From positions 22,221,316 through 22,285,315 of the forward strand of contig NC_081355.1 in the NCBI RefSeq assembly GCF_030684315.1: DNA of 64,000 nucleotides. Direction: 5' to 3'. The notes beneath the pieces are model-generated. The model was not told the origin of the DNA, did no database searches, and saw nothing but the letters and a program-made list of their open reading frames with translations. This stretch comes from Stegostoma tigrinum (Eukaryota). This document shows positions 15,001 through 63,094 of the stretch, in pieces. The first letter of the stretch is position 1; every line of letters begins with the position of its first letter. A program made the position numbers and the translations under genes.

Positions 15001-18000
15001 GCCAAATTTCTGGAAACATTTCTCACTGAGCAAAGTCCACTAACCCTGTGGAGATTCGGTGCAAAGCTCACGAGCTACTCTTTGTTTAATTTGATCAAGG
15101 TTATTGAATGATGACAGATAGAATTTTTCCCTTGGAGCTCCAGCAATTTGAACCAACTCATTTTCATCTGCTTCTCCAACACCGATGGCAAGTACATTGA
15201 TGTTTTTCTTCCTCAAGTCATTGGCCGGCTCAGCCACTTCGTCATCGGATTTCCCATCTGTGATCACCAAGAGGTTCTGAGAAATCCCCTTGGGCTTTCG
15301 GCTTCCTGCTGATGGTTCAAAGAATGTCATCACATTCCTAAGTGCCTTTCCTATTTGGGTGCCACCTTGTATTTGTCTGATCTTGTCAATTTTTTGAAAG
15401 AGAGTATTTTGGTCCCTAGTCTCATTCAGGTAAAATTCGGGCTGTGAGTCTTCGCTGAACTGAGCTGCTGCAAAGCGAAAATTTGTTTGGCCAAGATTCA
15501 GAGTTTCAATGATATGTTTCAAGAACTTCTTCACAGATGAAAAGTCATCTGCGTTAATGCTTCCCGATCCATCAATTAGAAAAACAACATCTGATTCAGA
15601 TAGTTCACAATCTGGAACAGAAGAACAAAAAACTTTAATGGCACCCATATTTTATAGGTGTAATTTTTTCACATATTTTCAAGCTTTGGACTTGGTCAAA
15701 CAATTTCTGAACGTAACCCCTCTCTTGAATGCTGACTGGCTTTGAAAGCAATCTGAGTTTCAAATCATCTGGCAAGCATTACTGTGATAAACTTGGGGCA
15801 AAATCTGGGTGTTAAATTCGTGAGATTTCTCTTTAACAAAGTTCACATTGTTACTAATTGTAATATATAACAATAACTTGCACTCATATTCTGCCATCAA
15901 TGTAAAACAAATGCCCGATGACATAGTACATCTGAACAAAACTGAAGCAGCTCAAAGTGAGAATCAGCATTGAATCCCAACAGTGTGGAAGACAGCCATG
16001 CAGCCCATCAAGTTCACATTGACCTTCTGGGGAGTATTCCACCCAGACTCAATCCCCAACTGTATCCCTGCAACCTGCATTTCCAATGACTAACCCACCT
16101 ACCCTGTACCTCCCTGGACACTGCGCAATTTAACATGGCCAATCTACCTACCTTGGACATCTTTGGACTGTGGGAGGAAACCCGCACAGACACAGGGGGA
16201 ATGGTGCAAACTCCACACAGACTCTTGCTGAGGATAGAATTGAACTCAGGTCCCTGGCTCTGGCAGGCAGCAGTGCTAACCACTGACTCCTATAGAAGAT
16301 AATAAGTAGGATGGCAATAAAAGACCGTGAGCAGTATTTAAAGAGTAACAGGAGAGTTCTCTTGTTGCAGAATAGAGACAGGTGGAATGGCTTATATTTC
16401 CAGAAATGGTCAAATAAAATCGCCTGAACGCTGAGGATGTTCTGAGGCAGAGTTTCCTCTGAATGAGAGGAGCAAGGCCTGCCTTCAGTCAATTAAGTCT
16501 CCCTGAAGATCACTTTTGGTATTCTATGTTCAGTGGAGAAGTATACATGACCAATTTTGTTTTAGCAACTGGGTGGGAAATGAGTATGAAACAGGTGGAT
16601 AAGCTTATCATACAGATACTTTCCCAGGCCATTCTCAAGGACTCATGTCGCTTCAAGCTGATGGTGTAACCACAAATTCATACTTCCCCACATACCCCTG
16701 ATAACCTGCCATCTCCTTGCCTGACCAAAAATCCATGGCTTTTTCAGGCAGAGAGTTACAAAGGCTCATGACACTCTGTGAGGAAATGATCCGTTTCTAT
16801 TCTGGTTGAGCTGCTTGACTCCTTAAGAAGAAATATCCAGCCTGTCAAGATCTCTCCGAACCTTGCATGTTTTGAAGTTCAATGAACAAAATGAACTAAT
16901 TTGTTCAGAACTACTTTTATACTTCTAAGCTGTAAGCATTCAATTGTTTAGAATCAAAACATGCATACACCTATGAAAAAATTGCAGAAAGATGCAAATA
17001 AACAGGAAAGATCTAAAAGCAAAACACCTCAAAATTAAGAAAACATGTACTTCAAGTCAGTTTCATAAATTGAAATTAAAAGCTCATTATTTCCATGGAG
17101 TATCAGGAATGTCCAGATCATGTCCACCAGTACACCACGGCATCAGATTTTATGGGAGATGCAGGAATGTGGCTAATTGACATGAGACAGGTTAGTGTAT
17201 ATCCTCCTTTGGTTGGATCTATGGTACCTGCCCGGTCCATGGCAACTGAAAGTTCTTGTGATGACTGGCCAATGCCAGATTTCAGGGGAGAACAGAAGAG
17301 GGAGAGAGTGGGAATGAACTATTTAACCAACATTGAAGTGTTCAGCCTTCTTCAACAATTGTAGAACCTCCAAACCTACCATGCGATCCGTTGATAATTT
17401 GCTTGCTCGAAAATTAGAGGTAATTACCTTAACTTTGAATGACCCACCTGGTTTGGTTTTTGTGCAAATCTGCCGAGAAATCTTTTGGGATAAATACTCC
17501 AAAGCAGTAAAATTGTTAACATAAAACCAATTTTCATCTGATCCTGCAATTGTCCGTAGTTCTTCTGTATTGGCTTTATCTACACCAACAGCAAGGATCT
17601 GAACATTGCTGTCTCTGATAGCTGCAGATGTAGTATCTAATCCTTGCTTAACTGTTGCAGCCCCATCAGTAATGACAATCAGGAACTGAGGAACACCATC
17701 TTCTCTCCGTCCACCGTTTTCTTTTCTCAGAAGGGTTTTTGCATGTTTAAGGGCATCAACAGTGTAAGTGTTTCCACCTACACTGTTTAATTGCTCGATC
17801 TGCTTTTGCACCTCAGCTTTAGTTTTCCATTTGTCCAGTCCACATACGGTTTGGGGTGTACTACCAAACAACACAGCTCCAATTTTAACGTTGTTCGGGC
17901 CAACATTGGTCCTATTTACCAGGCCCAACATGAAAGTTTTCATGCTTTCAAACTGATACTGTCCAATGCTACCTGATCCGTCTATTACAAATAAAATGTC

Positions 18001-21000: not shown

Positions 21001-24000
21001 ATTACAGTCTGCCAATCAAAAACTAATTCTGCATTTCTGCCTGCTTTGCTCCCTGTTAGCGAGCCAATCTTAAATCCATGCCAGTATGTTAACTCCTATA
21101 CCATCAGCTTCATCTTCCCATAGTAATCTTTGATTTAGCAACTTTTCAAATATTTTCTGGAAATTAAGGACCATACACCCACCCTTCCTTATCAACAGCA
21201 TGTGTAACTTCTTCAAAAAAACTCCACAAAATTGTTTAAACTTGAGGGATTTGGGCATTAGTGTTCACAAATCACAAAGAAACAGCATCTAAGTTCAGCA
21301 GGTAATTGGGAAAGGAAATGGAATTTTAACGGGAAAGAGGTCTAAAAGTAAGGAGGCTTTGCCGAAAATATTCAAGGCACTAGACAGATCACACCTGGAA
21401 TATTGTGAACAGTTGGGGCCCTTAGCTAAAGAAAGATACACTGGAATTGGAGGCAGTTCAAAGAATGTAGGGAATAATCTCAGGATAACGGGCTGCCCAT
21501 TTAATACATGCAACAGTAAACCTGAAATTTTTTCCCACAGAAGCTGGGCCGCTAAGTACATTCAAAGTTGACAGAATCAGACTATTATTCAGTAGGGGAA
21601 TTAAGGGCTCATGGTATTATTGGCCTTGTGGTACTATCGCTGTTAATCCAGAGACCCAGGTAATGTCCTGGGGACCCGTGTGTGAATCCCGCCACAGCAG
21701 ACAGTGGAATTTGAATTCAATAAATATCTGGAATTAAGGATCTAATGATGACCATGAACCTATTGTCAATTGTCTGAAAAACACATCTGGTTCACTAATG
21801 TCCTTTAGGGAAGGAAACTGCCATGCTTACCTGGTCTGGCCTACATGTGACTCTAGACCCACAGCCATGTGGTTGGCTCTAAAATGCCCTCTGGTAAATT
21901 AGGGATGGGCAATAAATGCTGTCTGGTCAGCGAGACCCTCATCTGGACAATTAGGGATGGGCAATAAATGCTGTCTGGTCAGCGAGACCCTCATCAGGAC
22001 AATTAGGGATGGGCAATAAATGCTGTCTGGTCAGCGAGACCCTCATCTGGGCAATTAGGGATGGGCAATAAATGCTGTCTGGTCAGCGAGACCCTCATCA
22101 GGACAATTAGGGATGGGCAATAAATGCTATCTGGTCAGCGAGACCCTCATCTGGGCAATTAGGGACGGGCAATAAATGCTGTCTGGTCAGCAAGACCCTC
22201 ATCCCGTGAATGAAAAAAAACAAAGAGACAAGGCAGTAAAGTGAGGTTGAGGGCTATCGGATAAGCCAGACTTTACTTGAACACCAGAACACACTTGATG
22301 GGCTAAACGGCCACATCTGTTATTATTATCTTATGATCTCAAATCCAAGTATTTTCTTGAATATAGCATTAGTCAACTCTCAAAACTCTTGATGTTCCGA
22401 AGTGAAGGAAAACGTTTACTCACTTTCATGAGAATTGCACGTCTCCCAATAAATTTTATCTTCCTGGTCTTTCAACAGATCAAAGTTTTCTATCGAGTGG
22501 ACTTTATCCTGGGATCCCCCAATTTCCAGAAGCTGTTTGTAGTCAATGTTGCCTACGCCCACGGCGACCACGATGATGCCTTTATTCCTTATGGCTGTGG
22601 CTGGTTGAAGGACCTCATCCTGTGCCCTTCCATCAGTTATCACTATGAGGTATTGCGGAACATTAGGGCGACCCCCTTCAGCTTCATCAAAATAGTCCAC
22701 TGCAAAGTTTAGTGCCTTGCCAGTGTGAGTGTCTGATGCAATCTTTTGCATGTCACCAATTGCTCTGTACAGATCATTTTTTAAAAAGAATGTGTTAAGC
22801 CGAAACATTAATTTTACTTCTGTGGAATACTGTATTAACCCAAGTTGAACCCTATTAGGTGCAATATTGCTTTTGTTTACAAAACTTATCACAAATGACT
22901 TCATTTTCTGGAAGTCATGTTGTGCTATACTCTTTGATCCATCGATTAGGAAGATGATGTCAGCTTGACGGTCAGGATTGCAAGCTGAAAGAAAATACAC
23001 CAGAATAGGTATTTTAAAAATGCTGTGAAAATCAGGTTAAAGGAAACAGCAATCTCACAATTTCATCTATATTATATATACGATATAGATATACACATAT
23101 GTCACATGTATCTCATACACTGGACAGATTCTTACACACACTTTAATTTCTGTTAATACTTTGGAATAAAGATATTAGTAATATTTTCAATAGAAACATT
23201 TATAACAATGCAGTGATCACAACACATTGCTTCAAACATTGCTAGTATTTACTTCAATAAAGAAGTGTGTAGAATAACCTTATCACATTAACATTCCAAA
23301 ACGTTAAAAGGTTCAGTAGGGTTGGTAAAAATGTACTATTTCCTCTGATTAGAGAATCATAAATTGAGGTTTCAAAATCTTAGGATTCTAGGTTCTTTGA
23401 GAAATTAATTTTTCTGAGATAAATGCGCTTTTGAGGCCAGGATCTGTAGACTTCCTTTTGTTATGCCATCATGGAATATGGAACCAGGGCAAATTTGGTG
23501 GCACAGTGCCTCACAGTGCCAGGAACCCAGGTTTGAGTGCAGCCTTGGGTACTGTCTCTGTGGAATTTGCACGTTTTCCCTGTGTCTGAGTGAGTTTCCA
23601 CTGGGTGCTCTGGGTTTCTCTCACCGTCCGAAGATGTGCAGGTTAGGTGGATTGGCCATGCTAGATTGCACCCTGATGAGGGATATGTGGGTTAGTTGGA
23701 TTAACCAGGGGATATGTGTGATTATGAGAATAGAGTGGAAGAGGCTTGGTTTGGGTGGAATGCTTATCAGAGGGTTGGTGTAGACTCAATAAGCTAAATG
23801 GTTTCTTTCTGCGCTGTTGGGATTCTATGATTCTAAGTAAATGTAGCTGACATTCAGATCGACCACAGTATAACTGAAAGGGGAACAGGCTCAAGGCGCA
23901 GTAATGCTTATTTGCATCCCTATGTTCCATCACAGTTCATCCAATCAAAATAATTAAAAAGCTTTTAGAAACAAAACTTTCAAATGTCATTTCATTTCAC

Positions 24001-27000: not shown

Positions 27001-29798
27001 GAATGCTACTTCCATACCTTTGTCGAGACAGATAGCCTGTCCAATTCTGTTTCTTATTTCTGACAGAGCATCAAAATGTTGTAGATAATAAACTCTTTCA
27101 TCAGCTCCCGCAATGAGCTGAAGCTCACTTTTGTCTGCAGCTCCTACACCAACAGCATAGACAACAACACCCTCTTGTCTCACTTTCATCGCAGGAATCG
27201 TTACATTATCATCTGACACTCCATCTGTGATGGTGATCAGCAAACGCTGCACTTCAGTTTTCCGGCTTTGCCTTGCTCTATTGAGATAAGTCGTCATATA
27301 TGTTAATGCTCTGCCTGTTTCAGTGCCTCCTCCAATTTGACCAATTCTTTCAATTGCTTCCACAAGTTCCACTTTACTGGTGTACTGAGTTATTTCAAAT
27401 TCAGATTGTACACGATCTGAAAACTGCACAACCCCAATGCGAACCTGGTTTTCACCAATACTGAAGAGCTTCACTACATCAGATAGAAATGTTTTAATCT
27501 CTTTGAAGTTGTCAGGATATATACTACCTGACCCATCAATCAGGAAAAATATATCGGCTTCTTCAGTTTCAACACAGCCTGAAAAAGAAAGGGACATTGC
27601 TTCAGTTACTAAAGTAAAAAACAGCTGGAACACACAGCAGCACTGACGCTCACTTGTAGAACTTGTTCTAACTCCTGCTTTCAAGATTTGCTATTTTTCA
27701 CCTCTATTTGTAAAACCATGGACTTGGTAAATCTGCAAAGAAAAATAGCAAATTAACAGCACTTCAGCTATGTTAAGCCGCACAGCAAAAAAATCATAAT
27801 TCTTCTGAATTAAGAGAGGAAAATAGCATCACAGATGACATAAACTTGAACATCAAATATAAAATTTGGGACTTCATGTGTTCACTTCCAAATCCATCTT
27901 GAACATTGCAATCTCACCTGAAGTAGCAAGATTGCATGTAACTTTGATGTAACACTCAGGCTAGGGGCTGGAAGTTTTGCAGGTGACTGTTTCAGGTGCA
28001 TGAGCTGAAAAGTGCTTACAAGTGAAAGGGCAGGGGAAGGCAAGATCAGCTAATTGGTTTTGATAGCCATGCCACCGCTTATAAGATGAGAAGTTGAGGA
28101 GCAAGTCCAGAAGGAAGAGGAGGAAGCAGAAGAAGGTGAAGAGTACATGGGAATAAAAAGTGGACAAGTCCATGTATGTTAATGACTAATTCAAGAGTGG
28201 AAACAGAAACTGTAACACCAATCCACCATTCACCAATCGTCTCATACTTCTTTCCTTCACTTCATTCTCAAAATTGAAGAAATTCAAGCTCTGCAAATCT
28301 GATTCAGTAGCAAGTACCAGATTTTGTCATTGGGGTTATGTGTATGCGGCAGATTGCTAGTCAGTGAATGATGATGGTATGGTGAATTCAGCAGTGTTTG
28401 AGACAATTAGTGCAAACATTGTTCTGTGGCTTTAAAGATATCTTGACTAACTTTGACCATTCTTAGAAGGTAATTAACAATACTCCACTACTGTATCTAA
28501 ATCTTTAGATTTTACTCCGAGAATCGACTTCCAAGGTTATCAGTGCTAACTTCCATTTCTTCGTGCTTCTGGGAAGCTTTCTACCCGGCTGAGGACACTT
28601 GACATTTTTTTTTCCAATTTTCAATTTTTCCACCAAGACATCTATGGTATGGAGTTATTCTCTCTTTCCAAATTCAAATTTGCAGAACAATCCCACGGCC
28701 TGATCAAGCCACAACAACATCCTTTAAAGGTACATCAACTAGATTTAAGTCATGCAAATTAGCAGTTACTATAGGTAACCAGTTGACGTATGCAGCCAGT
28801 GAACTACAAAGTGACTATATGCAGAAATCACTGTGATTGGCATGCAGTACAAAGTATGTGTGCTTCCTTCACTGCATTCAATGCAGTGGGGCAGATTTAC
28901 TCATCACCATCATTCTGCCCATGCTAATCAACTTAACAGCAGAGCATACAGAGGAGACTGACTGCAATGATACTCAGGAAGATAGGCTTCAATTATGTGG
29001 CAAGTCTCAAAAATCTAGGCTGACTCTCCTTTCAACAGGAGTGACTCAGATGAGATGTTCAAAATTATGATGGATTTTGATCAAGTAGTTTGGGTTTTCA
29101 CCAGCAAGAAGATTGATAACCACGTGATCGATAAAAGAGGCGGAGGTCACATGAGAAGAATTCATTTTATGCAGTGAGTTGTTACAATGTGGTGCAATCT
29201 GAAGACATGAGTTTAAAACTGATTGGCACCTCATCCACCATTTAAGTATTCACTTTCCAGCACTGGTACACTGCAGCTGCAGTGTAACTTATTCACAATG
29301 TGTATGCAGTAACTTGTAGATATGCCATCAGCAGCATCACCAAAATGCACATCCACTATCACCTCAATTGTCAATAGCAGTAAGTGCATGAGATTATCCT
29401 CATAATCAAAATTCCCTTCAAGTGATATCCTGCCTATACTCAGAAATATGTTAATATTCCTGAATTGTCATTAAGTCAAAATCCTGAACTCTGTGGGGCA
29501 CCAGCACCACTTGGACTGCTGTAGTTGTAAGGACTGTGACTATTTATTTTTGTGTCTTTAAAACCTGTGGACTACAAGGAGAAACAGTGGTTTTTAAAAT
29601 CACTGATTTAGCAGGATGGCTGCCTAATTTCATAACAAGAAATATAATGTCTATTGTGATCTCTTTGCTTTGCGGCCAGAGGCTTCTGCGAAGAGCAGAC
29701 AATTTAGATAGCTAAGGAGCTCTTTACAATTGGAGCTGATTGGTTCTCAGCTAACTGAGCAGGTTGGAGCTAGAAACAACTTACAGAGACACCAACAA

Positions 29799-29830
<32 letters not shown>

Positions 29831-41800: not shown

Positions 41801-42298
41801 AGACGATGAAAAGTAAAGTAAAACACACATTTAAACAAATGAGTTATGACGACTCCATCTTAGAATCTCCTTTGTTCTGCAAACACTTGTTTTGAAATTA
41901 AATCACATTAATTTCTTCATAAGTGGGTCATTATACAAAAGTGGATGATAATCCCTCTTTCATTAAGTAAGCTTCAAACAAATAAAATGATGACTAAATT
42001 TCAAATAAAGGGAGATCTGGGGCTGGATTCTTTCCAACAAAGAGTAACAGATGATTGGAAATGTCTCCACTAAATTTCTGTGAAGTCTGAGTCATTTGGA
42101 GCTTTCAAAGCTGAGATTGATAGGATTTCATGAACTGAAACAACATTGGGAAAATGGAGTGGAAGTACAAATATTATCAGCAATGATCTGATGAACTGAA
42201 GGGCTTAATCCTTTCCCTGTTCAGCAACTTACAATTGGAAATCATTTAGCTGTGCTTACATTCTGTACAAGATTTACAATTCGCACGTGCATATGCGT

Positions 42299-42347
<49 letters not shown>

Positions 42348-45300: not shown

Positions 45301-48300
45301 CGGAAGATCCAATGCAGAAGGCAAGTATATGTTAAACGGCAGAACACTTAGAAGCATTAACAAACAAAGGGATCTAGGTTTAAACGTCCACAGCTCCCTG
45401 AAAGTGGCAACACAAGTGGATAAGGTGGTCAAGAAGGCAGATAGCATACCTGCCTTCATTGGGCAGGGCATAGAGTATAAAAATTAGCCAGTCACGTTGC
45501 AGCTGTGTAGAACTTTAGTAAGGTCCCATTTGGAATGTTATGTATACTTCTGGTTGCCACATTATCAAAAGGATGTGGAGGCTTTGGAGTGGGTGCAGAA
45601 TAGGTTGACCAGGGTTTTGCCTGGTTTGGAGGGAATTAGTTGAGGAAAGATCCGACAAACTTGATTTTTTCACTTGAACGTTTGAGTGGCGGCCTGATAA
45701 AGGTTTACAACATTATGAGAAGAATGGATAGAATAGATAGTTTGAGTGTTTTGTTTTCTCTCATGTAGAAGTTTCAGTTAGCGGGGGCCTTAGATTTAAC
45801 TTGAAAAAAGGGTCATTTTAAAGGAGTTGTGAGAGGCGAGTTTTTTTTTACACAGAGTGCAGTAAGTGGAGTTGGAGCAGTTGGTAGAAACAGAATAGCA
45901 AAGTTGAAGAGGCATAGAACATAGAACATAGAACAGTACAGCACAGAACAGGCCCTTCAGCGCACAATGTTGTGCCGACCATTGATCCTCATGTATGCAC
46001 CCTCAAATTTCTGTGACCATATACATGTCCAGCAGTCTCTTAAATGACCGCAATGACCTTGCTTCCACAACTGCTGCTGGCAATGCATTCCATGCTCTCA
46101 TAACTCTCTGCGTAAAGAACCTGCCTCTGACATCCCCTCGATACTTTCCACCAACCAGCTTAAAACTATGACCCCTCGTGCTAGCCATTTCTGCCCTGGG
46201 AAATAGTCTCTGGCTATCAACTCTATCTATGCCTCTCATTATCTTGTATACCTCAATTAGGTCCCCTCTCCTCCTCCTTTTCTCCAATGAAAAGAGACCG
46301 AGCTCAGTCAACCTCTCTTCATAAGATAAGCCCTCCAGTCCAGGCAGCATCCTGGTAAACCTCCTCTGAACCCTCTCCAAAGCATCCACATCTTTCCTAT
46401 AATAGGGCGCCCAGAACTGGACGCAGTATTCCAAGTGCGGTCTAACCAAAGTTTTATAGAGCTGCAACAAGATCACACGACTCTTAAACTCAATCCCCCT
46501 GTTAATGAAAGCCAAAACACCATATGCTTTCTTAACAACCCTGTCCACTTGGGTGGCCATTTTAAGGGATCTATGTATCTGCACACCAAGATCCCTCTGT
46601 TCCTCCACGCTGCCAAGAATCCTATCCTTAATCCTGTACTCAGCTTTCAAATTCGACCTTCCAAAATGCATCACCTCGCATTTATCCAGGTTGAACTCCA
46701 TCTGCCACCTCTCAGCCCATCTCTGCATCCTGTCAATGTCCCGCTGCAGCCTACAACAGCCCTCTACACTGTCAACGACACCTCCGACCTTTGTGTCGTC
46801 TGCAAACTTGCTGACCCACCCTTCAATTCCCTCGTCCAAGTCATTAATAAAAATTACAAACAGTAGAGGCCCAAGGACAGAGCCCTGTGGAACTCCACTC
46901 ACCACTGACTTCCAGGCAGAATATTTTCCTTCATGTTGACAGATACCTGAATAGGCAGGGAACAGAGTGATATGGACTGCATAGAGATAAAAGGCTTTTG
47001 AGCTAGAAAGGCATGATGTGTCAGCAAAAGCTTGGTGGGCTGAAGGGCCTTTTCATGTGCTGTACTTTTCTTGCTCTTTGCTATGTCTACTCCTGGTTCA
47101 AAGCCTACCCACAGCGAAAGGCTAATGAAAACCTACTCCCAGAGAATGGCTAATGAAAGACTACTCCCAATGAAAGGTCAGTGAATGCCGAGTAGCAATG
47201 CAAAGTTAATAAAGGTCTATTCCCAATGAACAGTTAATGAATGCATACTCGCAAGTACATACTTAATTAATGCTTACTCCCAGTGAAATGTTGATGAATG
47301 CATAGTTGCAGTTTAAGCCTAACGAAGGTCCACTCCCAATGAAAAGTTTGTGAAAGCCCACTTAAATAAGCCAGGTGGTCCTGCTCCACCATAAATGTGA
47401 GGCCCATTCCCATACATAAAGGGTGCAAAGCCTAGTTCTGTGAACTGTTGGCACTTAGTCCTCAAGTTGTTCCATTTGTTCCTCTCAGTCTTTAATGTAA
47501 TCTCTATAGGTTTACACACCTTTTTGTGAGCTGCAAATCTCCCACAACAATTGTTTTTCTGTTTCTTCCAGTAATTCGAAATCTTCAACATAGTAGACCT
47601 TTTCCGGTTCTCCTACAATTTCCAGAAGCTGAGTGCTGTTAGCATTGAATACACCCACGGCGAACACAGTGACTCCTTTATCCCTTAGGGCTTTGGCTGG
47701 CTGAAGGACCTCATCCTGTGCCTCTCCATCGGTTATCACTATGAGGTACTGTGGAATGTTACGGCGACCCCCTTTAGCTTCATCAAAATAGTCCGCTGCA
47801 AATCTCAGTGCACGACCTGTGAGAGTCCCCCCTCCCAACTGCTGCATGTTACTGATCGCTGTGACTAGGTCAGCTTTTGCTGAGTGGACATTCAGTTGGA
47901 ACTCAGCTTTGGGCCTGGAACTAAATTGGATCAAGCCAACTTGAACTTTATCTAATCCAAAGTTGATTTTACTAACAAAAGCAGTCATTACTTTCTTCAT
48001 TTTAGCAAAATCTTCGGCCTGTATGCTTCCTGACGAATCAACGAGGAAGACGATGTCGGCTCGGTCAAGCTGACTGCAGACTGAAAAACATAGATCATTT
48101 CAGAAGTTAGATTTCAAGCTCTTCACCTTTTTCCCATTGCCAGGAGGGAGCTGATATATTAGGAACATTGTGAAGATGAGTTGCAAACACTGCAAAAAAC
48201 AATGTATCACTTTTAGGGAAGATTACTTTGCTGTGACAACCGCATGATAAAGGAGGAAAGGTCTGACTAGTAAGGAAACAAAAGTGTTCACAAATATTGG

Positions 48301-51300
48301 GATTGCAATCTCCTGGGCACAGAAAAAAAAGAGCAATAATGCAAAGAACAGAAGATATACTGAGTTAGGTGATACTGGCATTCCGACCTTAATTTTATTC
48401 CACACACTTCCTGGTGAAACTGGGGAAAAGAGGTATTAAAACAGGAGGAATGACTCACCTTTTTGACCCTGCTTTCTTCCTGCCCCTTCTTGATGTTAAC
48501 CTTCTCTTTTGCTAACCATTAAAATCACCATTTAACTCATGGTGATCAGTCCATTTGCAGAACGCGGCCCTTTAGTCCAACTCGTCCATGCCGACCAGAT
48601 ATCCTAAATTAATCTAGTCCCATTTGCCCACGTTTAGCCCATATCCATCTAAATCCTTCCTATTCATACATCCAGATGCCTTTTAAATGTTGTAATTGTA
48701 CCAGCCTCCACCACTTCCTCTGGCAGCTCATTCCATAAACACACCACCCACTGTGTGAAAAAGTTGACTCTCAGGTGCCTTTTAAAACTTTCCCTTTGTA
48801 TCTTAAACCAACGGTGTCTAGTTTTGGACTCCATCACTCTGGGGAAAACACCTTGACTATTCACCCTATCCATGCCTCTCATGATTTCAAAACATTTTTT
48901 TTAAGGTCACCCCTCAGCTTCCGCTGAAAAGAGCCCCAGCCTGTTCAACATCCCCCTGTAGCTCAAACCCTCCAAACCTGGCCACATCCTTGTAAATAGT
49001 TTCTGAACCATTTCACGTTTAACAACATCTTTCCTACAGCATGGATACTGGAAGGGAACTCAGTCTTCCAAACATGGCCTAACCAATGTCCTGTGCAGCC
49101 GCAACACGACCTCCCAACTCTTATACTGCGTGCCCTGGCAAATATTCTATCTACCTGCAACTCCATTATCAAGGAATTATGAACCTACACTCCCAGGTTT
49201 CTTTGTCCCGCAACACTCACCAGGGCCTCACAATTAAGTGTATAGGTCCTGCTCTGCTTTGCCCTAACCAAGTGTAGGACCTCGAATTTATAGAACATTA
49301 CAGCACAGTACAGGCCCTTCGTCCCTCGATGTTGTGCCGACCTGTCATACCGATCTCAAGCCCATCTAACCTACACTATTCCATGTACGTTCATATGCTT
49401 GTCCAATGAAGACTTAAATGTACTTAAAGTTGGCGAATCTATTACCGTTGCAGGCAAAGCGTTCCATTCCCTTACTACTCTCTGAGTAAAGAAACTACCT
49501 CTGACATCTGTCCTATATCTTTCACCCCTCAATTTAAAGCTATGACCCCTCGTGCTCGCCGTCACCATCCTAGGAAAAAGGCTCTCCCTATCCACCCTAT
49601 CTAACCCTCTGATTATTTTATATGTTTCAATTAAGTCACCTCTCAACCTTCTTCTCTCTAATGAAAACAGCCTCAAGTCCCTCAGCCTTTCCTTGTAAGA
49701 GCTTCCCTCCATACCAGGCAACATCCTAGTAAATCTCCTCTGCACCCTTTCCAAAGCTTCCACATCCTAGATTAAACTCCATCTGCCACTCCTCAGCTCA
49801 TCAGCCCATTTGATCGAGGTCTTGATGTGCTCCGTCCACAACACCCTTAATTTTGGTATCATCTGCAAACTCACTAACCAAAGCTACTATGTTCACATCC
49901 AACTCATTTACATGAATGACAAAAAGCAGTGGGCCCAGCTTTGTGGCACACTGCTGGTCATGGGCCTCCAGTCCAAAAAGTAACCCTCCACCACCACCCT
50001 CTGTTTTCTATCTCTCAGCCAATTTTATATCTAAATGGCTAGTCCACGATTGGCTTCTTTTGTCTGAGGCCTTACCACAGCAACAATGATGGCTCCCGTG
50101 ACAGACATGACCTGCCAGGGAGGGGGAATCACGGGTCAGAAGAGATCCAAAGAAGCAAACAGGTAATTGGAGGACAACTGCGAGCTGAAGTGGTAGATGG
50201 CAATACCCGACCCAGCAATTTCAAGGTGACATCTGCGCTAATGTTTTATGCAACTGGCAGCTTCCATGGATCCAGGGAGTAACCAAGTGGTATGACATTA
50301 TCCTCAGCTCACAAATGCATCAAGGCTATTATTGACGTAATCTGTGCTACAATACACCCACATTATCTTGTTTTTCCTCGACAAAATCAATGTTGCAGCC
50401 AAGGTAGTCGGCTTTTCCACAGTGCAGGGTCACATGTACGCATGCTACATTGGCAACACTATACTGTAATGCAGCAGGCTTCACCAATAGAATGTCTGGA
50501 TGCCTCACAAGAATCATGATTGGGTGCTAAGGGATACCCTGTGTAACTATGGCTTCTGACTGAGTTATACAACCCTTTGACTAAAGGCAAGCATAGATGC
50601 AACGCTGCCCACTCTAAAGCAATGTTACCCTGTGTAGCTCAATTGGTATATCTGCAGTTGCAAGGATAGCCCACTGGATAGGTAATGATGAAAAAGAGCA
50701 ATTCATTTATGATTATGAACTTGTATTTGCAAGGAAATATCAGCCGTGCCAACTATGTGCCCTCAGAAACTTTTCTTTTACACTATATGCACTGCAAAGG
50801 GCTGGTCCTGGCTGGCAGAGGTGACCTGGTACACGGCTGAGTTTTTATTACGGCACTGGCACTGGAAATCTTGGGAGTTCCCAGCAATGATGAGTACCTC
50901 CGCTGCTGGAGAGTGTATGGTAGCACAAGCATGGTGCCATGGATGTCTGCTGGATACTTGTCAAAGTGAGTAGTGGAGAATTGTGTCAGAAAATTTGCTA
51001 GAGCGCATAGAGGAAAACCTTCGATGAAGCTCCTCAAAATTGATACTTCACTGATTTTTGGTCAAATTCAACCAAAATTCCAATTTATACTTTAATCTCC
51101 AGGAACACAACTTGGCGTACTCTCGCATTATGAATCATACACAGATATCTATTTAGTTCCACACTGTAGGTTCAAGATTGATTCAATTTTGATGTAAATC
51201 ATATTCCAATGGTATGGAATTTCTCTGTAGATGGACCTCCAGGAACTCCCCCACTACTGGAGAATTATGCTCTCTTTTGACAAATAATGTAGTCTTTTTT

Positions 51301-54300
51301 TGGGAATTAATAACACACAGGAATTGGGGTCATTCCACTTTGGATCATGCCAAGATTCAATTCAATGGCATTGAAGCCATCTTTTACATCACAGAAAAGA
51401 AAGCAAAGTTTTAGTTTTCCAAAGTCCTTGAGGAGAAAGGAGATATAACACACTGCTTGAGAGAAGCCAGTAAAACACCTGCTTATTCAAGAAGGATCTA
51501 GATATTCTCTTAATTATAGAGTTTATACTTGACAAATCTCATCCTAATGCTTAAGATCTCACGTTGCTAGAATAGTGACCTACTTCAAATGGACCCCAGC
51601 AAAGCCACTCAGCTATACACCACAAACTTCCAAGACGGATTACTGCTCTATTGTAAATTAGCTAAAACTACAAAAGGTGTTTCATTGCCCTGGAATGGAT
51701 AGGGATCAATTTATTCGTACTCCAACTGTTCCTCCTGATTCTTCCTAGATAGTTGGCAAGACACAATTGTACAACATGGATATGCAAAGTTACATCATTA
51801 ATGTTCCCTACTATGCACAAGTGTAGAATCCAATGTACAATTCCACTCCTTTATTGAAAGAATTAAGCAATTTTGCAAATTTTAACTCTTAAAAGTGTTA
51901 ACAAGTAAATCACTCACGAGTTTCAACTTGAAATGTACAATCTTGTGGTTTCGTAAGTTGTTAACCAAAACAGCAATTAACTCATCTATAATAATAAGGA
52001 AATGTGTTCACAGGGATGATAATTCATGCATTATGTTTAAAACTATGGCCACTCAGAGAAGATATAGGAATTCTTACCTTGCTTCGAACACATATCCCGG
52101 ACTACGCTGTTTTTCATGTGTGTCAAAGTATCAAAGCTTTTTGTGTAAAAAACTCGCTCATCAGCACCAGCAATGAGTTGTAATTCATTTTCGTTTGCAT
52201 CTCCCACACCAATGGCATAGACAAACACCTCTTGTTGCCTTAATTCTGCAGCAGGTCTTGCTACATCATCTGTTGACATTCCATCCGTGATGGTGATCAG
52301 AAAATGCTGCACTTTAGTTTGTCGGCTTTGTTCTGCTCTACTGATGAAATTCTTCATGTATTTTAATGCATAGCCTGTTCTAGTGCCCCCTCCAACTTGA
52401 GGAATTTGCTTAATGGCTTGCATTAATCTTGTTTTGCTGGTGTATTGAGTGATTTCCAATTCAGTTTGTGGACTATCCGCGTACTGTACCACACCAATAC
52501 GAACCTGGTTTGGTCCAATCGTGAAGAGCTTCACTACCTCTACCAGGAATCTTTTCAAATCTTGGAAGTTCTCAGGCGATATACTTCTTGATCCATCAAT
52601 TAAGAAGAAGATATCGGCTTCTTCAGTTTCAGAACAGCCTGAAAGAGAAAAAAGCATTGCTTCCGTTATTAACAAAATCACAGCTGGAATACACAGCAGA
52701 ATTTTTGTTGTGTATCTGAATATTATATCCTAATTATTGTTTGCTGAAGAATCCTCATCGTTAGAATTCCTTATTATTAATGCGGTTGTTAATGTTAATG
52801 CAAGATGTAATGCAATTAACAATATACAGTATAAACATATACCTGCAGGAGTACATAGAGCTTTATGATTCAAATTTTCAGACAGCATCTCACATATAAC
52901 AAGAAATACAGATGCTGGAGTCAGAGACAACAAAGTGTATGGCTGGAGGAACACAGCAGCCCAGACAGCTTCAGAAGAGCTCGCAAGTTGACATTTCAGG
53001 TTGGGACCCTCCTTCGGAAATGGGGAGGTGAAAAGGTGCTCAGAAATAGACAGCGGAGGGGTGGGGCTGGGGAAGGTAGGTGGGATGGTGATAGGGAGTG
53101 CAGGTTGGGAGTGGTGGGGATTGGTCAGTGAGGTGGGACGAGCAGATAGGTGGGAGAGAAGATGGGCAGGTTGTGTCAGGTCAAGGAGGTGGGGATGAGG
53201 GGAAGGGTTGGACACTGGGTGAGGCCAAGGGTGGGGTGATTTTAAAACTGGTGAATTCTATGTTTAGGCCATTGGGCTGCCGGCTCCTGAGGCGGAACCC
53301 GAAACGTCAACTGCTTCCCTGCTGCCTGGTCTGCTGTGTTCCTCTAGCTCCACACTGTGTTCTCATATAGTATGCTTGTTTTGCAAAGTTCCTGAAGTTT
53401 AAGAAAATTGAGAGATGCAATGATTTAAAAAAAAGCAATTTGCCAGAACATTAGGGGATAACTTTCAAACCAACTTTGATTAAGATATCAAAGGATAAGG
53501 GAGTCAGGAAAACAATGTTGAAACAGTCAACTATGATCTTAGTGAGTAGTGGAACAAGAATAAGAAGCCAATTGGTCTATTTCTATTTCCTTTGTTTGCA
53601 CTGGAGGACTAGTCCAAGCTCCACATCTAAAATGCCCCTCTGTATAGATGAAACATTATTTGGAGGAGTCAATTGATGGTTTTCAATTTCCAGCAGATAA
53701 AGGATCAATATCTGTAGCTTGGAGATGAATTTCCTGCCAACAGAGAATTCCTTCATACTTTGGGTAGACTCTTGTATCCGTCATGTCCTGTAATGTCATT
53801 ATATTGCCTACAACCACTAGCACTACAAATTGGGCCCAAGTTTTAACCACTAGCCATCTCTGTGCAGCCCATAATAGTGTTGCTGGTGAAACTCATTTAC
53901 TGACAGAGATAGTTAACTGCCTTCGTGTTTTTTTTAAGAATGAGAATGTGAATGTCACTGGAAAGTCCAGCATTTTTGGTCCAACCCTGGTTGCTTTTGT
54001 GAAGGCTGTAGTGAGCTACCTTGGTGGTGAGACAATCTAGTGTGGATGCAGAAGTCAAAAAACAGGCTCCAGATTTTTGGCCAGGATGACATTGGGCTTG
54101 AAGGGAATTTGCAGTGATGCTGTTTCCGTGAGTCTGTTACCCTTCCAAAAGGCAAAGGTGGTGGATTGGAAAGTACTGTTAAAGGAGGCTTGCTGTACAG
54201 TATTTTGTACATGGCTGCTATTCATCAGCGGTGGTGAAGAGTGTGACTATTTCTGTGGTGGAAATGGTCCCAAACAAGCAGGCTGCCTGCCTGGTACTGG

Positions 54301-57300: not shown

Positions 57301-58994
57301 GTGCCTTCTTCCCTGGACTTCTTTCTTCCATCACGCAATACCTGTTTTCCTGAGATCTTACCCATGCACTCCTCCTTTCAATCTAAAATCTCTCCTCCCA
57401 CCCCCTCTCTTGGCCTCACTGCAAAGCCTCCTAAAATGACCTCCAACCTGGCTCCAGGACTTTGAATCTGGGACTACAGGGTAGTGGCCAGGTTGATTAA
57501 TTTGGCCAACAGGTTTCTGAGGTGGGGAGCAGAAATCTTGCTTCCAGTCAATTACCCTTCCTTTGGGTATTAAATAGCTGTGCGGCAATTGGCACCAGAC
57601 GGAAGAAATTCCCTGGAGTCCAGAAATGTGGAGCTGGAAAAGCACAGCAGGTCAGACAGCATCCGAAGAGCAGGAAAGTCAACATTTTGCACTGAAACTC
57701 TTCATCAGGACTCTGCCTCTTTGGCTAGCAGCTGGGAAAAGGCTTGCCACTTACAATACCCAGCTCCTGCAAAAGGTAGGTATCCCATTTTCTAGAGCTT
57801 TTATCCTTAACGTCGAAGAATACATAATTTTTTTAAAAGTTACATTTACGTAGTACCTTTCATGATGACTGTCCCAAAGTGCTTTCTGGCCAATGAAATA
57901 CTTTTGTATTGCAGTGACTTTTGAGGTGTAGCAAATCTGACACCCAACCTGTTTTCAGCAAGCTGCCACACAGAACAATGTAGTATTGACCATATCTTTG
58001 TTTTTGTGATGTTGATTGAGGGCTGAATATTGGCCCAAGAGCACTATGTATAATGCCAAGGGTTTTTTTATTGTGTATATGTAAATCATTGATAATGAGG
58101 GAGCAGACAAGACCCTGGTTAAAAATCATTGATTAGCACCACTACACAGCTCTTCCTTAGTGTTGCACTGGCATGTCAGACTAGATGTTTGTGCTCGACT
58201 GTGAGTTGAATATAGGATTTTCTGACTCAGTGGAGTGAGCATTACCAAATGGACCACCACTGACACTGCAATTCAGTTCAAAAAGCATCTTAAAGACTCT
58301 GCCTTCTCCATCTGAACACACAGATCAAGCTAAAACATTAACCAACCAATACAAATAAAACCGCAGGTCTCACCATGCTGAAGTTGCTCAATTTGCTCAG
58401 GAACTTTCGAAATCGAGTTACGTATCGCATTGCAAATCCTCTTCTGAATGCGTTCCTCCACTTTCTTTAGTTGGTCAAAGTCCTGGATTATTTGGACATA
58501 ACTTCTTGAGGGATATGAGCCAATATGTTGTAGCTCAGACACATTGGCATCTTTGATTCCAAAAGCAAACACTGTAATGCCAGAACGCCGTAGGGCAGTG
58601 GCTGGATCTATCACATCGTCCTGGGATTTGCCATCAGTTATCACCACTGCGATCTGAGGGACACCTTGGTTTATGCGACTACCATACCTTGGGACAAAGT
58701 ATCTCTGCTTGATGTATTCAATGGCTGCCCCTGTGTAAGTTCCTCCCCCTCGGTACGGTAAGTTTTGGATCTCTCTCAGGATGTCAGATTTGTTCTTAAA
58801 ATCGTTCAGATGAATGTTTGGATTTGTAAGTGTGCTGTACTGAATCAAACCAATTCGGACCTTTTCACGTGCAACATCCAAGGCTTTGACAAGATTGTAA
58901 AGGAACTGACGCATCAGTTGAAATCTTCCCTCTCCAATGCTGCTTGATTCGTCCACAACAAAAACGATATCAGCAACAGTAGCTGTTTGGCACA
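13..58994 (-). CDS. COL6A6: Collagen VI long chain (alpha-4/5/6 family, COL6A6-like), partial multi-exon CDS: join of 58374-58994, 52078-52638, 47520-48080, 41214-41789, 39934-40500, 37504-38100, 30898-31518, 27018-27578, 22424-22984, 17448-18023, 15045-15611, 11951-12297, 9178-9256, 2841-2986, 2290-2382, 13-66
   Basis: 16 exons with AG/GT boundaries and compatible phases give one open frame: tandem vWA domains (DxSxS..T..TDG), an N1 domain ([29 protein letters not shown]), CCxxxCxC, then Gly-X-Y. Domain order matches mammalian COL6A5/A6 as recalled. Exact orthology within COL6A4/5/6 is uncertain. Start and stop are outside the window. Confidence 0.9.
389..581. mobile_element. Palindromic Penelope-like (pLTR) remnant with 13-bp TSD
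   Basis: Near-perfect inverted arms (acaacaaagcgtgaagctggatgaacacagcaggcc... / ...ggcctgctgtgttcatccagcttcacgctttgttgt). Direct repeat ATGTTGTCATAGA at 376-388 and 582-594. Confidence 0.75.
833..1182 (+). mobile_element. tRNA-derived SINE (Meta-domain-like core, LINE-derived tail)
   Basis: A/B-box head, core cctttagggaaggaaac...ctggtctggcctgcatgtgac, tail aattagggatgggca..aaatgctgg...gaatgaataaa. The same family recurs at about 9.6, 14.5, 21.6, 44.0 and 55.9 kb. Confidence 0.75.
2290..2382 (-). CDS. COL6A6: Collagen VI exon O: Cys-rich junction and start of triple helix (93 nt, phase 0-0); not in the ORF track
   Basis: cacaag|AGAGCAGTTGCC...ACAAAG|gtaaga; [31 protein letters not shown]. The acceptor was chosen by phase among adjacent AGs. 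Confidence 0.85.
2841..2986 (-). CDS. COL6A6: Collagen VI exon N: N1 vWA domain part 3 (146 nt, phase 1-0)
   Basis: ttccag|GAGTCCATGCA...AAGATA|gtaagt; [12 protein letters not shown]...[14 protein letters not shown]. Confidence 0.9.
6185..6525 (+). mobile_element. CR1 LINE 3' fragment
   Basis: Degenerate ..FPRMG.SRTRGH.FKVRG...FTQRVV..W coding end plus 3' UTR. Confidence 0.7.
7300..8400 (-). mobile_element. PIF/Harbinger (HARBI1-like DDE) transposase relic
   Basis: Minus strand about 8070-8212 reads FPVVVKV / [34 protein letters not shown], matching the HARBI1-type motif (F)YASGSFQ...GISQS..H.CI..V..AL. Boundaries approximate. Confidence 0.6.
7745..7926. mobile_element. Older palindromic Penelope-like remnant, second family
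   Basis: gaaattgctggaaaagctcagcaggtctggcag... and its inverse ...ctgccaggcttgctgagcttttccagtaatttc. Confidence 0.6.
9178..9256 (-). CDS. COL6A6: Collagen VI exon M: N1 vWA domain part 2 (79 nt, phase 0-1); not in the ORF track
   Basis: ctgcag|ATGATTTTATTC...GAAAATG|gtaaat; [26 protein letters not shown](G), matching the family motif F(S/T)DGLD...LR.EG. Confidence 0.88.
9640..9992 (-). mobile_element. tRNA-derived SINE (same family as 833-1182)
   Basis: Reverse complement of head (gggatttgaacccaggaccccagaacattacctg...cactaggcca) and core (ttccttccctaaa). Confidence 0.65.
10758..10781. repeat. Poly-G run (about 24 nt)
   Basis: Directly visible; a shorter G-run lies at 9720-9732. Confidence 0.9.
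11951..12297 (-). CDS. COL6A6: Collagen VI exon L: N1 vWA domain part 1 (347 nt, phase 1-0)
   Basis: caccag|CCTGTACCATA...ATCAAG|gtagcg; [15 protein letters not shown]...SLSAVSC...LNAKTLESF. Confidence 0.9.
12920..13690 (-). mobile_element. Stacked CR1 LINE 3' fragments
   Basis: Two tails of the type ggagcaggagtaggccatt...ccccttga (12937, 13205), each followed by degenerate RT C-terminal sequence. Confidence 0.6.
15045..15611 (-). CDS. COL6A6: Collagen VI exon K: vWA domain, N2-type, copy 2 (567 nt, phase 1-1)
   Basis: ttccag|ATTGTGAACTA...CCACAGG|gttagt; [18 protein letters not shown]...VITDG...LCTESPQ. Confidence 0.93.
15968..16286 (-). mobile_element. HE1-type V-SINE
   Basis: Reverse complement of cagtggttagcactgctgcc...ctgtgtggagtttgcac...cctcccacagtccaaagatgt...ggttaggtagattggccatg...gggattc. 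Confidence 0.85.
17448..18023 (-). CDS. COL6A6: Collagen VI exon J: vWA domain, N3-type, copy 2 (576 nt, phase 1-1)
   Basis: tttcag|CTTGCAGAAGG...AAACCAG|gtgggt; [19 protein letters not shown]...IVITDG...ICTKTKP. The exon extends 5' of the listed ORF start. Confidence 0.92.
18160..18657 (-). mobile_element. CR1 LINE 3' fragment
   Basis: Tail aacagtacagcacagtacaggcccttcggccc followed by frameshifted RT C-terminus (LE..QRRFT.MLPG); same lineage as 45.9 and 49.3 kb. Confidence 0.8.
19561..19895 (+). mobile_element. Two tandem Penelope pLTR fragments with hammerhead-like cores
   Basis: ctgaagaagggtcccgacccgaaatgtc at 19571-19598 and ctgaagaagggtcctgactcgaaacatc at 19792-19819, each followed by the cctgctgtgttc..ccagct..ac...gttatc...ccagcatc tail. 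Confidence 0.7.
20150..21240 (-). mobile_element. Degenerate CR1 LINE fragment
   Basis: Decayed RT motifs (FFEEVT...DFQK.F.K...RLL) and 3' UTR on the minus strand. Confidence 0.65.
21242..21605 (+). mobile_element. Degenerate CR1 LINE 3' fragment (continues at about 22225-22335 after a SINE insertion)
   Basis: RDLG...[13 protein letters not shown] (ORF 21359-21571). Confidence 0.65.
21620..22220 (+). mobile_element. tRNA-derived SINE with six-fold amplified tail
   Basis: Well-preserved head and core of the 833-1182 family; tail repeated in tandem. Confidence 0.8.
21897..22204. repeat. 52-bp tandem repeat, 6 copies
   Basis: Unit aattagggatgggcaataaatgctgtctggtcagcgagaccctcatc(t/a)gg(a/g)c starts at 21897, 21949, 22001, 22053, 22105 and 22157. 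Confidence 0.95.
22424..22984 (-). CDS. COL6A6: Collagen VI exon I: vWA domain, N4-type, copy 2 (561 nt, phase 1-1)
   Basis: tttcag|CTTGCAATCCT...CATGAAA|gtgagt; [19 protein letters not shown]...IVITDG...TCNSHE. Confidence 0.93.
23495..23835 (+). mobile_element. HE1-type V-SINE
   Basis: gcctcacagtgccaggaacccaggtt...tgtggaatttgcacg...gatgtgcaggttaggtggattggccatgcta...gggattctatgattcta. Confidence 0.85.
24466..24670. mobile_element. Palindromic Penelope-like remnant with hammerhead core and 15-bp TSD (2 mismatches)
   Basis: Inverted arms; ctgatgaagggtctaggcccgaaatgtc at 24577-24604; flanks ggaggtagtcatgtg (24451-24465) and ggaagtggtcatgtg (24671-24685). Confidence 0.8.
25368..25690 (+). mobile_element. 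HE1-type V-SINE, near full length
   Basis: gtggtggctcagtggtgagcactgctgcctca...ggttcaattcc...tgtgtggagtttgcacattctccccgtgtctg...gggcctgtttccgcactgtaggga. Confidence 0.9.
26470..26640 (+). mobile_element. Harbinger-associated Myb/SANT-like ORF relic
   Basis: FLDAHLE / [22 protein letters not shown] resembles FS..ELE.L...V..RR.ILF of Myb/SANT (NAIF1/MSANTD-type) domains; frameshifted. Confidence 0.45.
27018..27578 (-). CDS. COL6A6: Collagen VI exon H: vWA domain, N5-type, copy 2 (561 nt, phase 1-1)
   Basis: tttcag|GCTGTGTTGAA...GACAAAG|gtatgg; [19 protein letters not shown]...ITITDG...ICLDK. Confidence 0.93.
30898..31518 (-). CDS. COL6A6: Collagen VI exon G: vWA domain, N6-type, copy 2 (621 nt, phase 1-1)
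   Basis: ttacag|TGTGTCTGTCA...GAGCAAG|gtgaga; [19 protein letters not shown]...[12 protein letters not shown]...ICNEI. Confidence 0.93.
31840..32705 (-). mobile_element. Degenerate CR1/L2-group LINE fragment
   Basis: Tail catccctaattgccc.tgagaaggtg; RT motif GVPQDSVL at about 32220-32245. Confidence 0.65.
33690..33921. mobile_element. Palindromic Penelope-like remnant with two hammerhead cores and perfect 15-bp TSD
   Basis: About 95-bp inverted arms centred on aaaagctttt (33780-33789); CCAAGTAGATCAAGT at 33675-33689 and 33922-33936. Confidence 0.85.
33752..33779 (-). ncRNA. Minimal type-I hammerhead ribozyme core, Penelope-associated (putative)
   Basis: Minus strand CUGAAGA-A-GGGU(CUAG)GCCC-GAAA-CG-UC. 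A mirror copy CUGAUGA-A-AGGU(CUAG)GCCU-GAAA-CG-UC is on the + strand at 33790-33817. Activity untested. Confidence 0.6.
35620..35830 (-). mobile_element. Short tRNA-headed SINE (partial sister copy at about 2640-2780)
   Basis: Minus-strand head ttagctcaattgactgga; body aactggtgg..tttaacct..ggg..accac.c.t.aggc.aggggag..gttgaga.gg.gagtcctt shared by both copies. Confidence 0.5.
35870..36152 (+). mobile_element. HE1-type V-SINE
   Basis: ggttagcactga...accagggacctgagttcaatt...ctgtctgtgtggagtttgcac...agggattcta. Confidence 0.85.
36811..37093 (-). mobile_element. HE1-type V-SINE
   Basis: catagaatccctacag...ccacctaacctgcacatctttggactgtgggaggaaac...aaactccacac. Confidence 0.85.
37504..38100 (-). 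CDS. COL6A6: Collagen VI exon F: divergent vWA domain, N7-type (597 nt, phase 1-1), degenerate MIDAS, no flanking Cys
   Basis: tatcag|GTCCTGTTGCTGAT...CCATCAG|gtaaaa; [15 protein letters not shown]...[10 protein letters not shown]...[11 protein letters not shown]. Resembles the first vWA domain of mammalian alpha-5/6 chains. Confidence 0.88.
39934..40500 (-). CDS. COL6A6: Collagen VI exon E: vWA domain, N2-type, copy 1 (567 nt, phase 1-1)
   Basis: ttctag|TTTGTGATGTT...GCGGAAG|gttagt; [18 protein letters not shown]...VITDG...LCTPPAE. Confidence 0.93.
41214..41789 (-). CDS. COL6A6: Collagen VI exon D: vWA domain, N3-type, copy 1 (576 nt, phase 1-1)
   Basis: tcacag|ATTGCTGGAAG...AAGCCCG|gtgagt; [19 protein letters not shown]...VITDG...FCHDSKP. 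Confidence 0.93.
42294..42358. repeat. (GT)n microsatellite
   Basis: Directly visible, with interruptions. Confidence 0.95.
42390..42610 (+). mobile_element. Putative short solo LTR
   Basis: TGTA...TACA termini, internal CCAAT and AATAAA (about 42558); only a 3-bp flanking match (aac). Confidence 0.45.
43963..44317 (-). mobile_element. tRNA-derived SINE (same family as 833-1182), nested in CR1
   Basis: tttattcattcacaggatgagggcgtcgctgg...ccttccctaaag..cattagtgaaccag...ggattcgaacccaggtccc. Confidence 0.8.
45914..46931 (-). mobile_element. Young 5'-truncated CR1 LINE; uninterrupted 300-aa RT C-terminus and (TTCTATG)n tail
   Basis: ORF 46003-46905: [39 protein letters not shown]; tail agaacatagaacatagaac. 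Confidence 0.95.
47100..47365. repeat. Diverged 28-bp minisatellite, about 9.5 units
   Basis: Units of consensus cctactcccaatgaaaggttaatgaaag start at 47104, 47132, 47160, 47188, 47216, 47244, 47273, 47301, 47329 and 47357. Confidence 0.8.
47520..48080 (-). CDS. COL6A6: Collagen VI exon C: vWA domain, N4-type, copy 1 (561 nt, phase 1-1)
   Basis: tttcag|TCTGCAGTCAGCTT...CAAAAAG|gtgtgt; [19 protein letters not shown]...IVITDG...ICSSQK. The exon extends 5' of the listed ORF start. Confidence 0.92.
48545..50045 (-). mobile_element. CR1 LINE fragment with a younger CR1 3' end (49290-49768) nested inside
   Basis: ORFs 48664-48882 and 49371-49763 ([14 protein letters not shown]...FFTQRVV..WN.LP); the host resumes at attaaactccatctgcc (49771). 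Confidence 0.9.
50150..50640 (+). mobile_element. PIF/Harbinger (HARBI1-like DDE) transposase relic
   Basis: From 50223: [41 protein letters not shown]...LVFP. From about 50520: [32 protein letters not shown], compare LGDSGYPL..WLMTP..NP....E..YN.AH. Confidence 0.75.
52078..52638 (-). CDS. COL6A6: Collagen VI exon B: vWA domain, N5-type, copy 1 (561 nt, phase 1-1)
   Basis: tttcag|GCTGTTCTGAA...AAGCAAG|gtaaga; [19 protein letters not shown]...ITITDG...MCSKQ. Confidence 0.93.
52900..53366 (-). mobile_element. 5'-truncated Penelope-like element: GIY-YIG C-terminus, 3' pLTR and inverted 5' pLTR piece
   Basis: Minus 53238-53297 encodes [20 protein letters not shown] (Penelope endonuclease end, compare FRLGTLQP.GLN), then a C/T-rich 3' region and the pLTR at 52900-53020; inverted piece cccgaaacgtc...ctgctgtgttcctc at 53298-53366. 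Confidence 0.8.
53925..55460 (-). mobile_element. Old CR1/L2-group LINE fragment
   Basis: Colinear similarity to 24190-25860 and 31840-32705 (tail ccagcatttttggtccaaccctggttgc; ttcagctcttttgtccatgtttgga). Confidence 0.6.
55538..55885 (+). repeat. Three tandem copies of a ~110-bp tRNA-like SINE (another copy on minus at about 26835-26920)
   Basis: gtggtagtgtccctacctctga...ggttcaagtccc..ctg.tcca....gtgtaataacatctctgaacaggttgatt at about 55540, 55670 and, truncated, 55830. Confidence 0.7.
55885..56225 (+). mobile_element. tRNA-derived SINE (same family as 833-1182), degenerate
   Basis: ggcagatggtgaaatttgaatt...ctggtccggcctatgtgtgaccccagacccacagcaa...cccacatccctcatacgaataaaa. Confidence 0.65.
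56410..56770 (+). mobile_element. DeuSINE-like element, degenerate (a related minus-strand copy at about 57860-58268)
   Basis: tcagccatggttca...gagtcagaag...gaggctgacac...tgtccttcagaggaaatgttaaaccaagg resembles the Deu-domain consensus as recalled. Confidence 0.5.
58374..58994 (-). CDS. COL6A6: Collagen VI exon A: vWA domain, N6-type, copy 1 (621 nt, phase 1-1)
   Basis: tctcag|TGTGCCAAACAGCT...CAGCATG|gtgaga; [19 protein letters not shown]...[12 protein letters not shown]...ICNAI. Confidence 0.93.
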
Positions 58995-62935: not shown

Positions 62936-63094
62936 CTTATCTACCCTTTCCAAAACATTTTATCAGGTTAGTTAATCATGATTTAGCTTTTTGAAATCCA
63001 GACTGGCTTTCTTTTTCTTTATATACACATACATCACTTCCTTTGACACAGAATCAATAAATAATATAATATTGAGTGGTCTGTTTTCCCCCAT

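Follow-up and report, generated by a model that had tools for sequence, protein, structure and literature searches.

Gene W and its exons

The window analyzed here, a stretch of 64,000 nucleotides at positions 22,221,316–22,285,315 on C2 of Stegostoma tigrinum, harbors most of a collagen VI long-chain gene, which we term W. In a six-frame scan, eleven long reading frames for vWA domains, together with the beginning of N1, were recognized on the minus strand of the window. Splice-site mapping reproduced exactly the lengths given for exons A through K in a preliminary description of this DNA (621, 561, 561, 576, 567, 597, 621, 561, 561, 576, and 567 bp) and, as also stated there, all eleven are open with canonical AG/GT splice sites, each in phase 1-1. 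Splice mapping combined with identity assigns the exons to two blocks, read here in transcript order. Block 1 contains exon A (58374–58994, N6-type vWA), exon B (52078–52638, N5), exon C (47520–48080, N4), exon D (41214–41789, N3), and exon E (39934–40500, N2). The 1,833-bp E–F intron (38101–39933) forms the boundary between the blocks and is followed by exon F (37504–38100), which encodes the internal N7-type vWA domain of block 2, a fast-evolving domain in which the MIDAS is degenerate. Exons G (30898–31518), H (27018–27578), I (22424–22984), J (17448–18023), and K (15045–15611) then supply the N6, N5, N4, N3, and N2 domains of block 2. The first exon of N1 lies at 11951–12297, with further exons near 9,256–9,176 and 2,987–2,841, and the first exons of the triple helix are located at about 2,382–2,290 and 66–13 (13–2382), all on the minus strand. 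The remaining helix, C1, C2, and Kunitz regions are spread over 68 kb downstream of the window.

The 5′ end of W extends beyond the other edge of the window. A second N7-type, F-like exon had been predicted past position 64000, and a search with exon F located it about 3 kb outside the window (F′, 603 bp, minus strand, window-extended 67,738–67,136); a second AG 21 nt upstream provides a possible alternative acceptor. F′ shows 57–78% identity to its orthologues. Between F′ and A lies a 36-bp minus-strand linker exon (63825–63860) that the preliminary description had overlooked, and a comparable linker is present in the Hemiscyllium and Pristiophorus models. The signal-peptide exon maps 34 kb outside the window, on the same strand (window-extended 98,396–98,321; C2:22319711-22319636). 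It is 100% identical to residues 1–25 of the Stegostoma RefSeq model XP_059508798.1 (P0168) and was the only significant match to seven signal peptides across 314 kb around gene W.

Repetitive elements are found at several places in and near the W introns. Reverse-transcriptase-like reading frames at 46,006–47,052, 61,768–62,940, 45,002–45,484, and 49,374–49,766 resemble what we take to be fragments of CR1-type LINEs. In the D–E intron, a short high-copy repeat at 40,630–40,940 reaches a summed contig depth of up to 11,509, compared with 22 in its flanks, while a low-complexity repetitive stretch directly upstream of exon A (59,186–59,959) is open in all three minus-strand frames.

When the exons are joined in order from the signal exon to exon K, the frame is unbroken and contains zero stops. 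The resulting domain order is signal peptide, N7 through N2 twice, N1, a 336-residue helix, C1, C2, and Kunitz, which gives 13 N-terminal vWA domains and a predicted chain of ∼3,445 aa. The region before the helix, N1 included, comprises 2,568 aa, in keeping with the earlier estimate of about 2,330 aa or more. W thus has the layout of a collagen VI long chain, with a signal peptide, an N-terminal vWA array, a helix of ∼336 residues, and C1 plus C2. The cysteine at helix position 50 aligns with that of alpha3-like and mouse alpha5 chains and the helix is followed by a CxCC motif (CACC); additional cysteines at helix positions 6 and 72 are both absent from other orders.

A complete MIDAS motif has the form D-x-S-x-S...T...D. 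In columns taken from one alignment, all ten W N6–N2 domains contain this motif, compared with two of five in paralogue X and one of five in paralogue Z, while neither N7-type domain of W has a complete MIDAS. The same ten domains each carry a terminal cysteine pair, which the two N7-type domains lack; closure of N-domains by such pairs is described as a trait of alpha4–6, unlike alpha3 (PMC3919171). In the W orthologues the motif is complete in two to five of the five block 1 domains (two of five in Carcharodon and Cetorhinus) and in four or five of five where block 2 is complete. The single-block coelacanth and sturgeon chains have five of five, which argues that W retained its MIDAS sites and doubled them, and that the sites are not new. 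Most mammalian collagen VI vWA domains are described as lacking a complete MIDAS (PMC3919171), and mammalian alpha3 N9–N1 is reported to contain one (PMC3220584), compared with ten in W.

One chain or two

The preliminary description proposed a single chain with at least 12 N-domains. The splice sites at the block boundary, the E donor and the F acceptor, are canonical. As claimed, no collagenous or C-terminal exon separates the blocks: we detected no N1 or collagen remnant between them, and a signal-peptide search of the 1,833-bp E–F intron found no homologue of the signal exon, with the ATG-to-GT frames there unlike the signal exon by eye. Genomic continuity across the junction, which had been left to be checked, is borne out by contigs from all four runs that span F, the E–F intron, and E with 0 differences; these contigs represent at most two samples of one study, possibly the assembly's own sample, and the runs include introns and so are silent on splicing.

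Comparison with other proteins also bears on the junction. An N2-type domain is directly followed by an N7- or N9-type domain in 14 of the 369 proteins compared: 11 W models from nine galeomorph species, one Callorhinchus model, and two teleost predictions. Ten of the 11 W models are from RefSeq, whose models of W are automated and may be propagated by homology. The full-length models came from a single-protein search of 1.84 billion representatives and two database searches, and the nine species with W junction models are Stegostoma tigrinum, Hemiscyllium ocellatum, Chiloscyllium plagiosum, C. punctatum, Carcharodon carcharias, Cetorhinus maximus, Mustelus asterias, Scyliorhinus torazame, and S. 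canicula. RefSeq models of W, named "collagen alpha-6(VI) chain-like," include XP_059508798.1, XP_072365905.1, XP_060706236.1, XP_041039948.1, XP_078098451.1, and XP_078391912.1. Identity to the orthologues is 57–84% for block 1 domains and 50–73% for block 2, similar to the 55–92% of the canonical paralogue Z. The models vary in domain number. XP_059508798.1, from S. tigrinum itself, is 100% identical to the domains of the window yet skips F′ and so has 12 N-domains; three hemiscylliid (bamboo and epaulette shark) models contain F′ twice, giving 14; and the low-quality S. canicula model is missing N5–N2 of block 2. In the sawshark Pristiophorus, W has one block in all four isoforms. No W orthologue from Heptranchias or from rays was found among the best 120 of 861 matches, a weak negative because of the length filter applied (1,784–5,677 aa).

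Two readings other than a single long chain were weighed against these data. An assembly artefact, or a misjoin of two haplotypes or genes, might be suspected from the repeat-rich introns. However, the blocks are just 48–62% identical in protein and 58–74% in DNA, contigs span the junction, and the junction recurs in eight further species; we regard this explanation as refuted, with a negligible probability. A subtler alternative is that W is one gene whose blocks seldom share an mRNA, either because the 5′ end skips to block 2 or because the transcript ends after E and encodes a secreted, collagen-less vWA protein. Several features would permit this: exons F′ to K are all phase-symmetric, reading past the E donor hits a stop at once, a vWA-only offshoot of COL6A3, apparently without collagen, is present on C9 of the same genome, the sawshark models are one-block, and distal alpha3 domains are reported to be often spliced out (PMC2116307, PMC3220584). 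Arguing against it are the canonical E donor and F acceptor, which are joined in 10 RefSeq models of nine species, the lack of a signal exon belonging to block 2, and the conservation of both blocks, and we consider it improbable. We infer the E–F splice from the gene models together with the absence of a second signal exon. With good, though not full, confidence, the two blocks are assigned to one predicted chain of about 3,445 aa with 13 N-domains, one more than the minimum of the preliminary description.

Paralogues and the origin of the doubled block

Three further long-chain genes were compared with W. Paralogue X (C2:22,021,388-22,048,063), on the opposite strand to W, has nine N-domains, two of them extra at the N terminus. 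Models from sturgeon, gar, coelacanth, Xenopus, and turtle also have nine, which may be the ancestral number for this group. In paralogue Y (C2:22,520,001-22,680,000), the signal exon is followed by just N7 and N1 before the helix, C1, C2, and Kunitz; N6–N2 of Y were not found in these 160 kb, and its Heptranchias orthologue has them. With two N-domains, this long-type chain does not reach the five described as necessary for microfibrils. Paralogue Z is canonical, with seven N-domains. One Heptranchias model, P0144, carries a run of four near-identical N4 domains, and no helix was detected in it.

The COL6A3 locus (C9:25,560,000-26,050,000) contains 15 intact vWA exons plus N1, hence 16 N-domains, and one broken exon (about 25,648,300). 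Upstream of COL6A3, a distinct gene has a signal exon of its own (25,932,260) and 19 vWA exons, the last followed by a stop. It is apparently a collagen-less COL6A3 offshoot and resembles Carcharodon XP_041056050.1 (20 vWA domains, no helix). A third group of seven vWA exons lies at 26.018–26.048 Mb. The C9 survey covered the locus on either side of 25.80–25.92 Mb.

Within the window, exons A to E are each most similar to the partner six exons away, as had been noted (A/G 53%, B/H 61%, C/I 56%, D/J 49%, E/K 55%; other pairings 24–43%), and the measured offsets of 23.8–27.5 kb agree with the 24–27 kb given. Genome-wide, however, the statement fails for exon C, which is closer to paralogue X (75%) than to I, and F′ and F share just 34% identity; pairwise identity alone is therefore insufficient to establish an intragenic origin. 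At the DNA level, codons 61–150 of exon C are 89–97% identical to the N4 exon of X, compared with 57–69% for codons 1–60. Exon C thus likely carries a gene-conversion tract shared with X, which would account for its greater similarity to X than to I.

Across the local paralogues X, W, Y, and Z, domains cluster by position. Trees were built with FastTree, and from reduced sets of 23–26 rows. One tree combined N6, N5, N3, and N2 (23 rows, 712 columns); N4 was omitted owing to its conversion tract, and N7 since it was missing from the sawshark row used. In this tree blocks 1 and 2 of W fall into a single clade (100/99), which favors the intragenic block duplication originally proposed. A grouping of block 1 with paralogue X was rejected (AU p=0.0077). 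Sawshark N6–N2 group with block 2 (100/99), and forcing both galeomorph blocks together without sawshark was likewise rejected (AU p=0.0005); since the groups were selected with the trees already in view, these AU p-values are optimistic. F′ and the sawshark N7 group together (100/99), and the linker after this N7 is that of block 1. Sawshark W is thus one hybrid block, with a block 1 N7 and block 2 N6–N2, as would be expected from loss or skipping of A–F. The hybrid block suggests that the two-block state is older than the galeomorph/squalomorph split, and the doubling probably predates that divergence.

The chimaera may push the event back further. The N2-to-N7 junction recurs in the Callorhinchus model, with an N7 that is sister to F (99/96), which would place the doubling before the split with chimaera, dated to 421 Ma (PMC3692497), and hints at an age of more than 400 My. 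In contrast, the two N2 domains of the chimaera pair together (100/99, 71% identical) and the concatenated tree does not place its block, which makes an independent duplication possible there. F and F′ do not form a sister pair in the N7 tree. A duplication that was recent or lineage-specific was rejected: inter-block blastn matches consist of the paired exons and repeat-like pieces in no matching order, and the AU test gave p=0.0005. Derivation of block 1 from paralogue Y was rejected as well, with 43% identity between F′ and Y N7 and 44–51% between Heptranchias Y and either block.

The N7–N2 block is present twice, likely through an ancient unequal crossover. The competing account of its origin is a fusion of two tandem paralogues, in which the upstream gene lost its N1, helix, and C terminus and the downstream gene its signal exon. 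Four long-chain paralogues lie within 0.9 Mb at this locus, the family is described as duplication-prone (PMC6934817), and F and F′ diverged very early and are unpaired, all of which such a fusion would accommodate. Yet blocks 1 and 2 are mutually closest over N6, N5, N3, and N2, the AU test rejects a grouping of block 1 with X, the E–F interval contains no trace of N1, collagen, or a signal exon, and among the best 120 of 1,083 and the best 120 of 861 matches not one species showed these types as two separate genes. We therefore view fusion as possible and the less favored account; it concerns origin only and is compatible with a 13-domain chain. Trees alone cannot separate whole-gene duplication followed by deletion from internal duplication.

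Relation to known collagen VI chains and proposed function

W shares with mammalian alpha4, alpha5, and alpha6 the N7–N1 types in order, cysteine-closed N-domains, the 336-residue helix, Cys 50, the CxCC coiled-coil motif, C1, and C2, as described for those chains (PMC3919171, PMC12354898); it differs from them in having 13 N-domains instead of 7. The baseline of seven assumed in the preliminary description holds for mammals in the same sources, and fails for the shark, sturgeon, coelacanth, frog, and turtle models of this group that have nine. In a quick, alpha3-rooted tree (25 of 28 rows), the C-terminal region of W groups with alpha4/5/6-type chains and away from alpha3. Specifically, W falls with Y and Z in a cartilaginous-fish clade (SH-aLRT 100) that excludes every bony-vertebrate row in the tree, from which mammalian alpha6 was dropped as its row has no anchor motif; the name "alpha-6(VI)-like" is not proof of one-to-one mammalian orthology. 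With COL6A3, which lies in a separate clade, W shares a long skippable N-terminal vWA array, a C-terminal Kunitz domain, and lineage-specific array growth. COL6A3 in this genome, however, is a run of near-equivalent exons, whereas W is an ordered six-exon block that has been doubled.

The chain had been called giant. It is long, but COL6A3 of the same genome has more N-domains and teleost alpha3 models reach 5,000–5,900 aa. Teleost predictions from Synaphobranchus, Lota, Silurus, and Hemibagrus (P0173, P0176, P0184, P0213) have a repeated N-domain block before one helix and represent independent block duplications or mis-joined tandem genes. Together with the COL6A3 array and the long teleost alpha3 chains, they indicate that long arrays are recurrent in fishes. 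The W chain represents an uncommon version of a known protein, not a new system. The layout was also thought to be undescribed, and a literature search, light on subscription journals, most of which were outside its coverage, found no description of it. Nevertheless, the junction is already contained in 10 RefSeq models from nine shark species, which makes the layout shark-wide and old, so that its novelty had been overstated. The doubled block is thus old, conserved, and apparently undescribed, automated annotation already containing the duplication without any comment that we saw.

In alpha1-alpha2-alphaX trimers, the X position is reported to be occupied by long chains (PMC12354898) and, by analogy with mammalian work (PMC12354898, PMC4777857), W would take this position and assemble with alpha1 and alpha2 into tetramers and microfibrils. 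Mammalian microfibrils are described as requiring five or more proximal N-domains, with the distal ones forming a flexible, C-shaped arm that projects from the bead (PMC12354898, PMC4777857, PMC3220584). By the same reasoning, the proximal domains on which microfibril assembly depends, five or more, would come from block 2 and N1, and the projecting arm would be extended by block 1. Shorter isoforms are expected, as the vWA exons F′ to K are all phase 1-1, and exon skipping that yields such isoforms is reported for chicken alpha3 (PMC2116307). The complete MIDAS motifs in all ten N6–N2 domains suggest that the likely gain was twice the number of metal-dependent binding sites. That this doubling, through greater avidity or reach, is the selected function is a plausible proposal that we put somewhat short of even. 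A broader scenario is more speculative, and we hold it to be rather doubtful: the doubled arm would date from the last common ancestor of all cartilaginous fishes (>400 My), would have persisted in galeomorphs as an adhesive collagen VI chain of high avidity and metal dependence, bearing up to ten intact MIDAS sites and absent from bony vertebrates, and in the sawshark lineage recombination would have reduced it again to a single block.

As a domain-count variant in a family that has expanded repeatedly in fishes, W is noteworthy for specialists and not startling. The role of the distal N-terminal collagen VI vWA domains is described as poorly understood (PMC12354898, PMC3220584). The shark locus provides a natural length series, with 13–14 N-domains in W, nine in X, seven in Z, and two in Y. 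This series and the ten complete MIDAS motifs of W, where mammalian alpha3 has one, allow arm length and metal-dependent binding to be tested in parallel.
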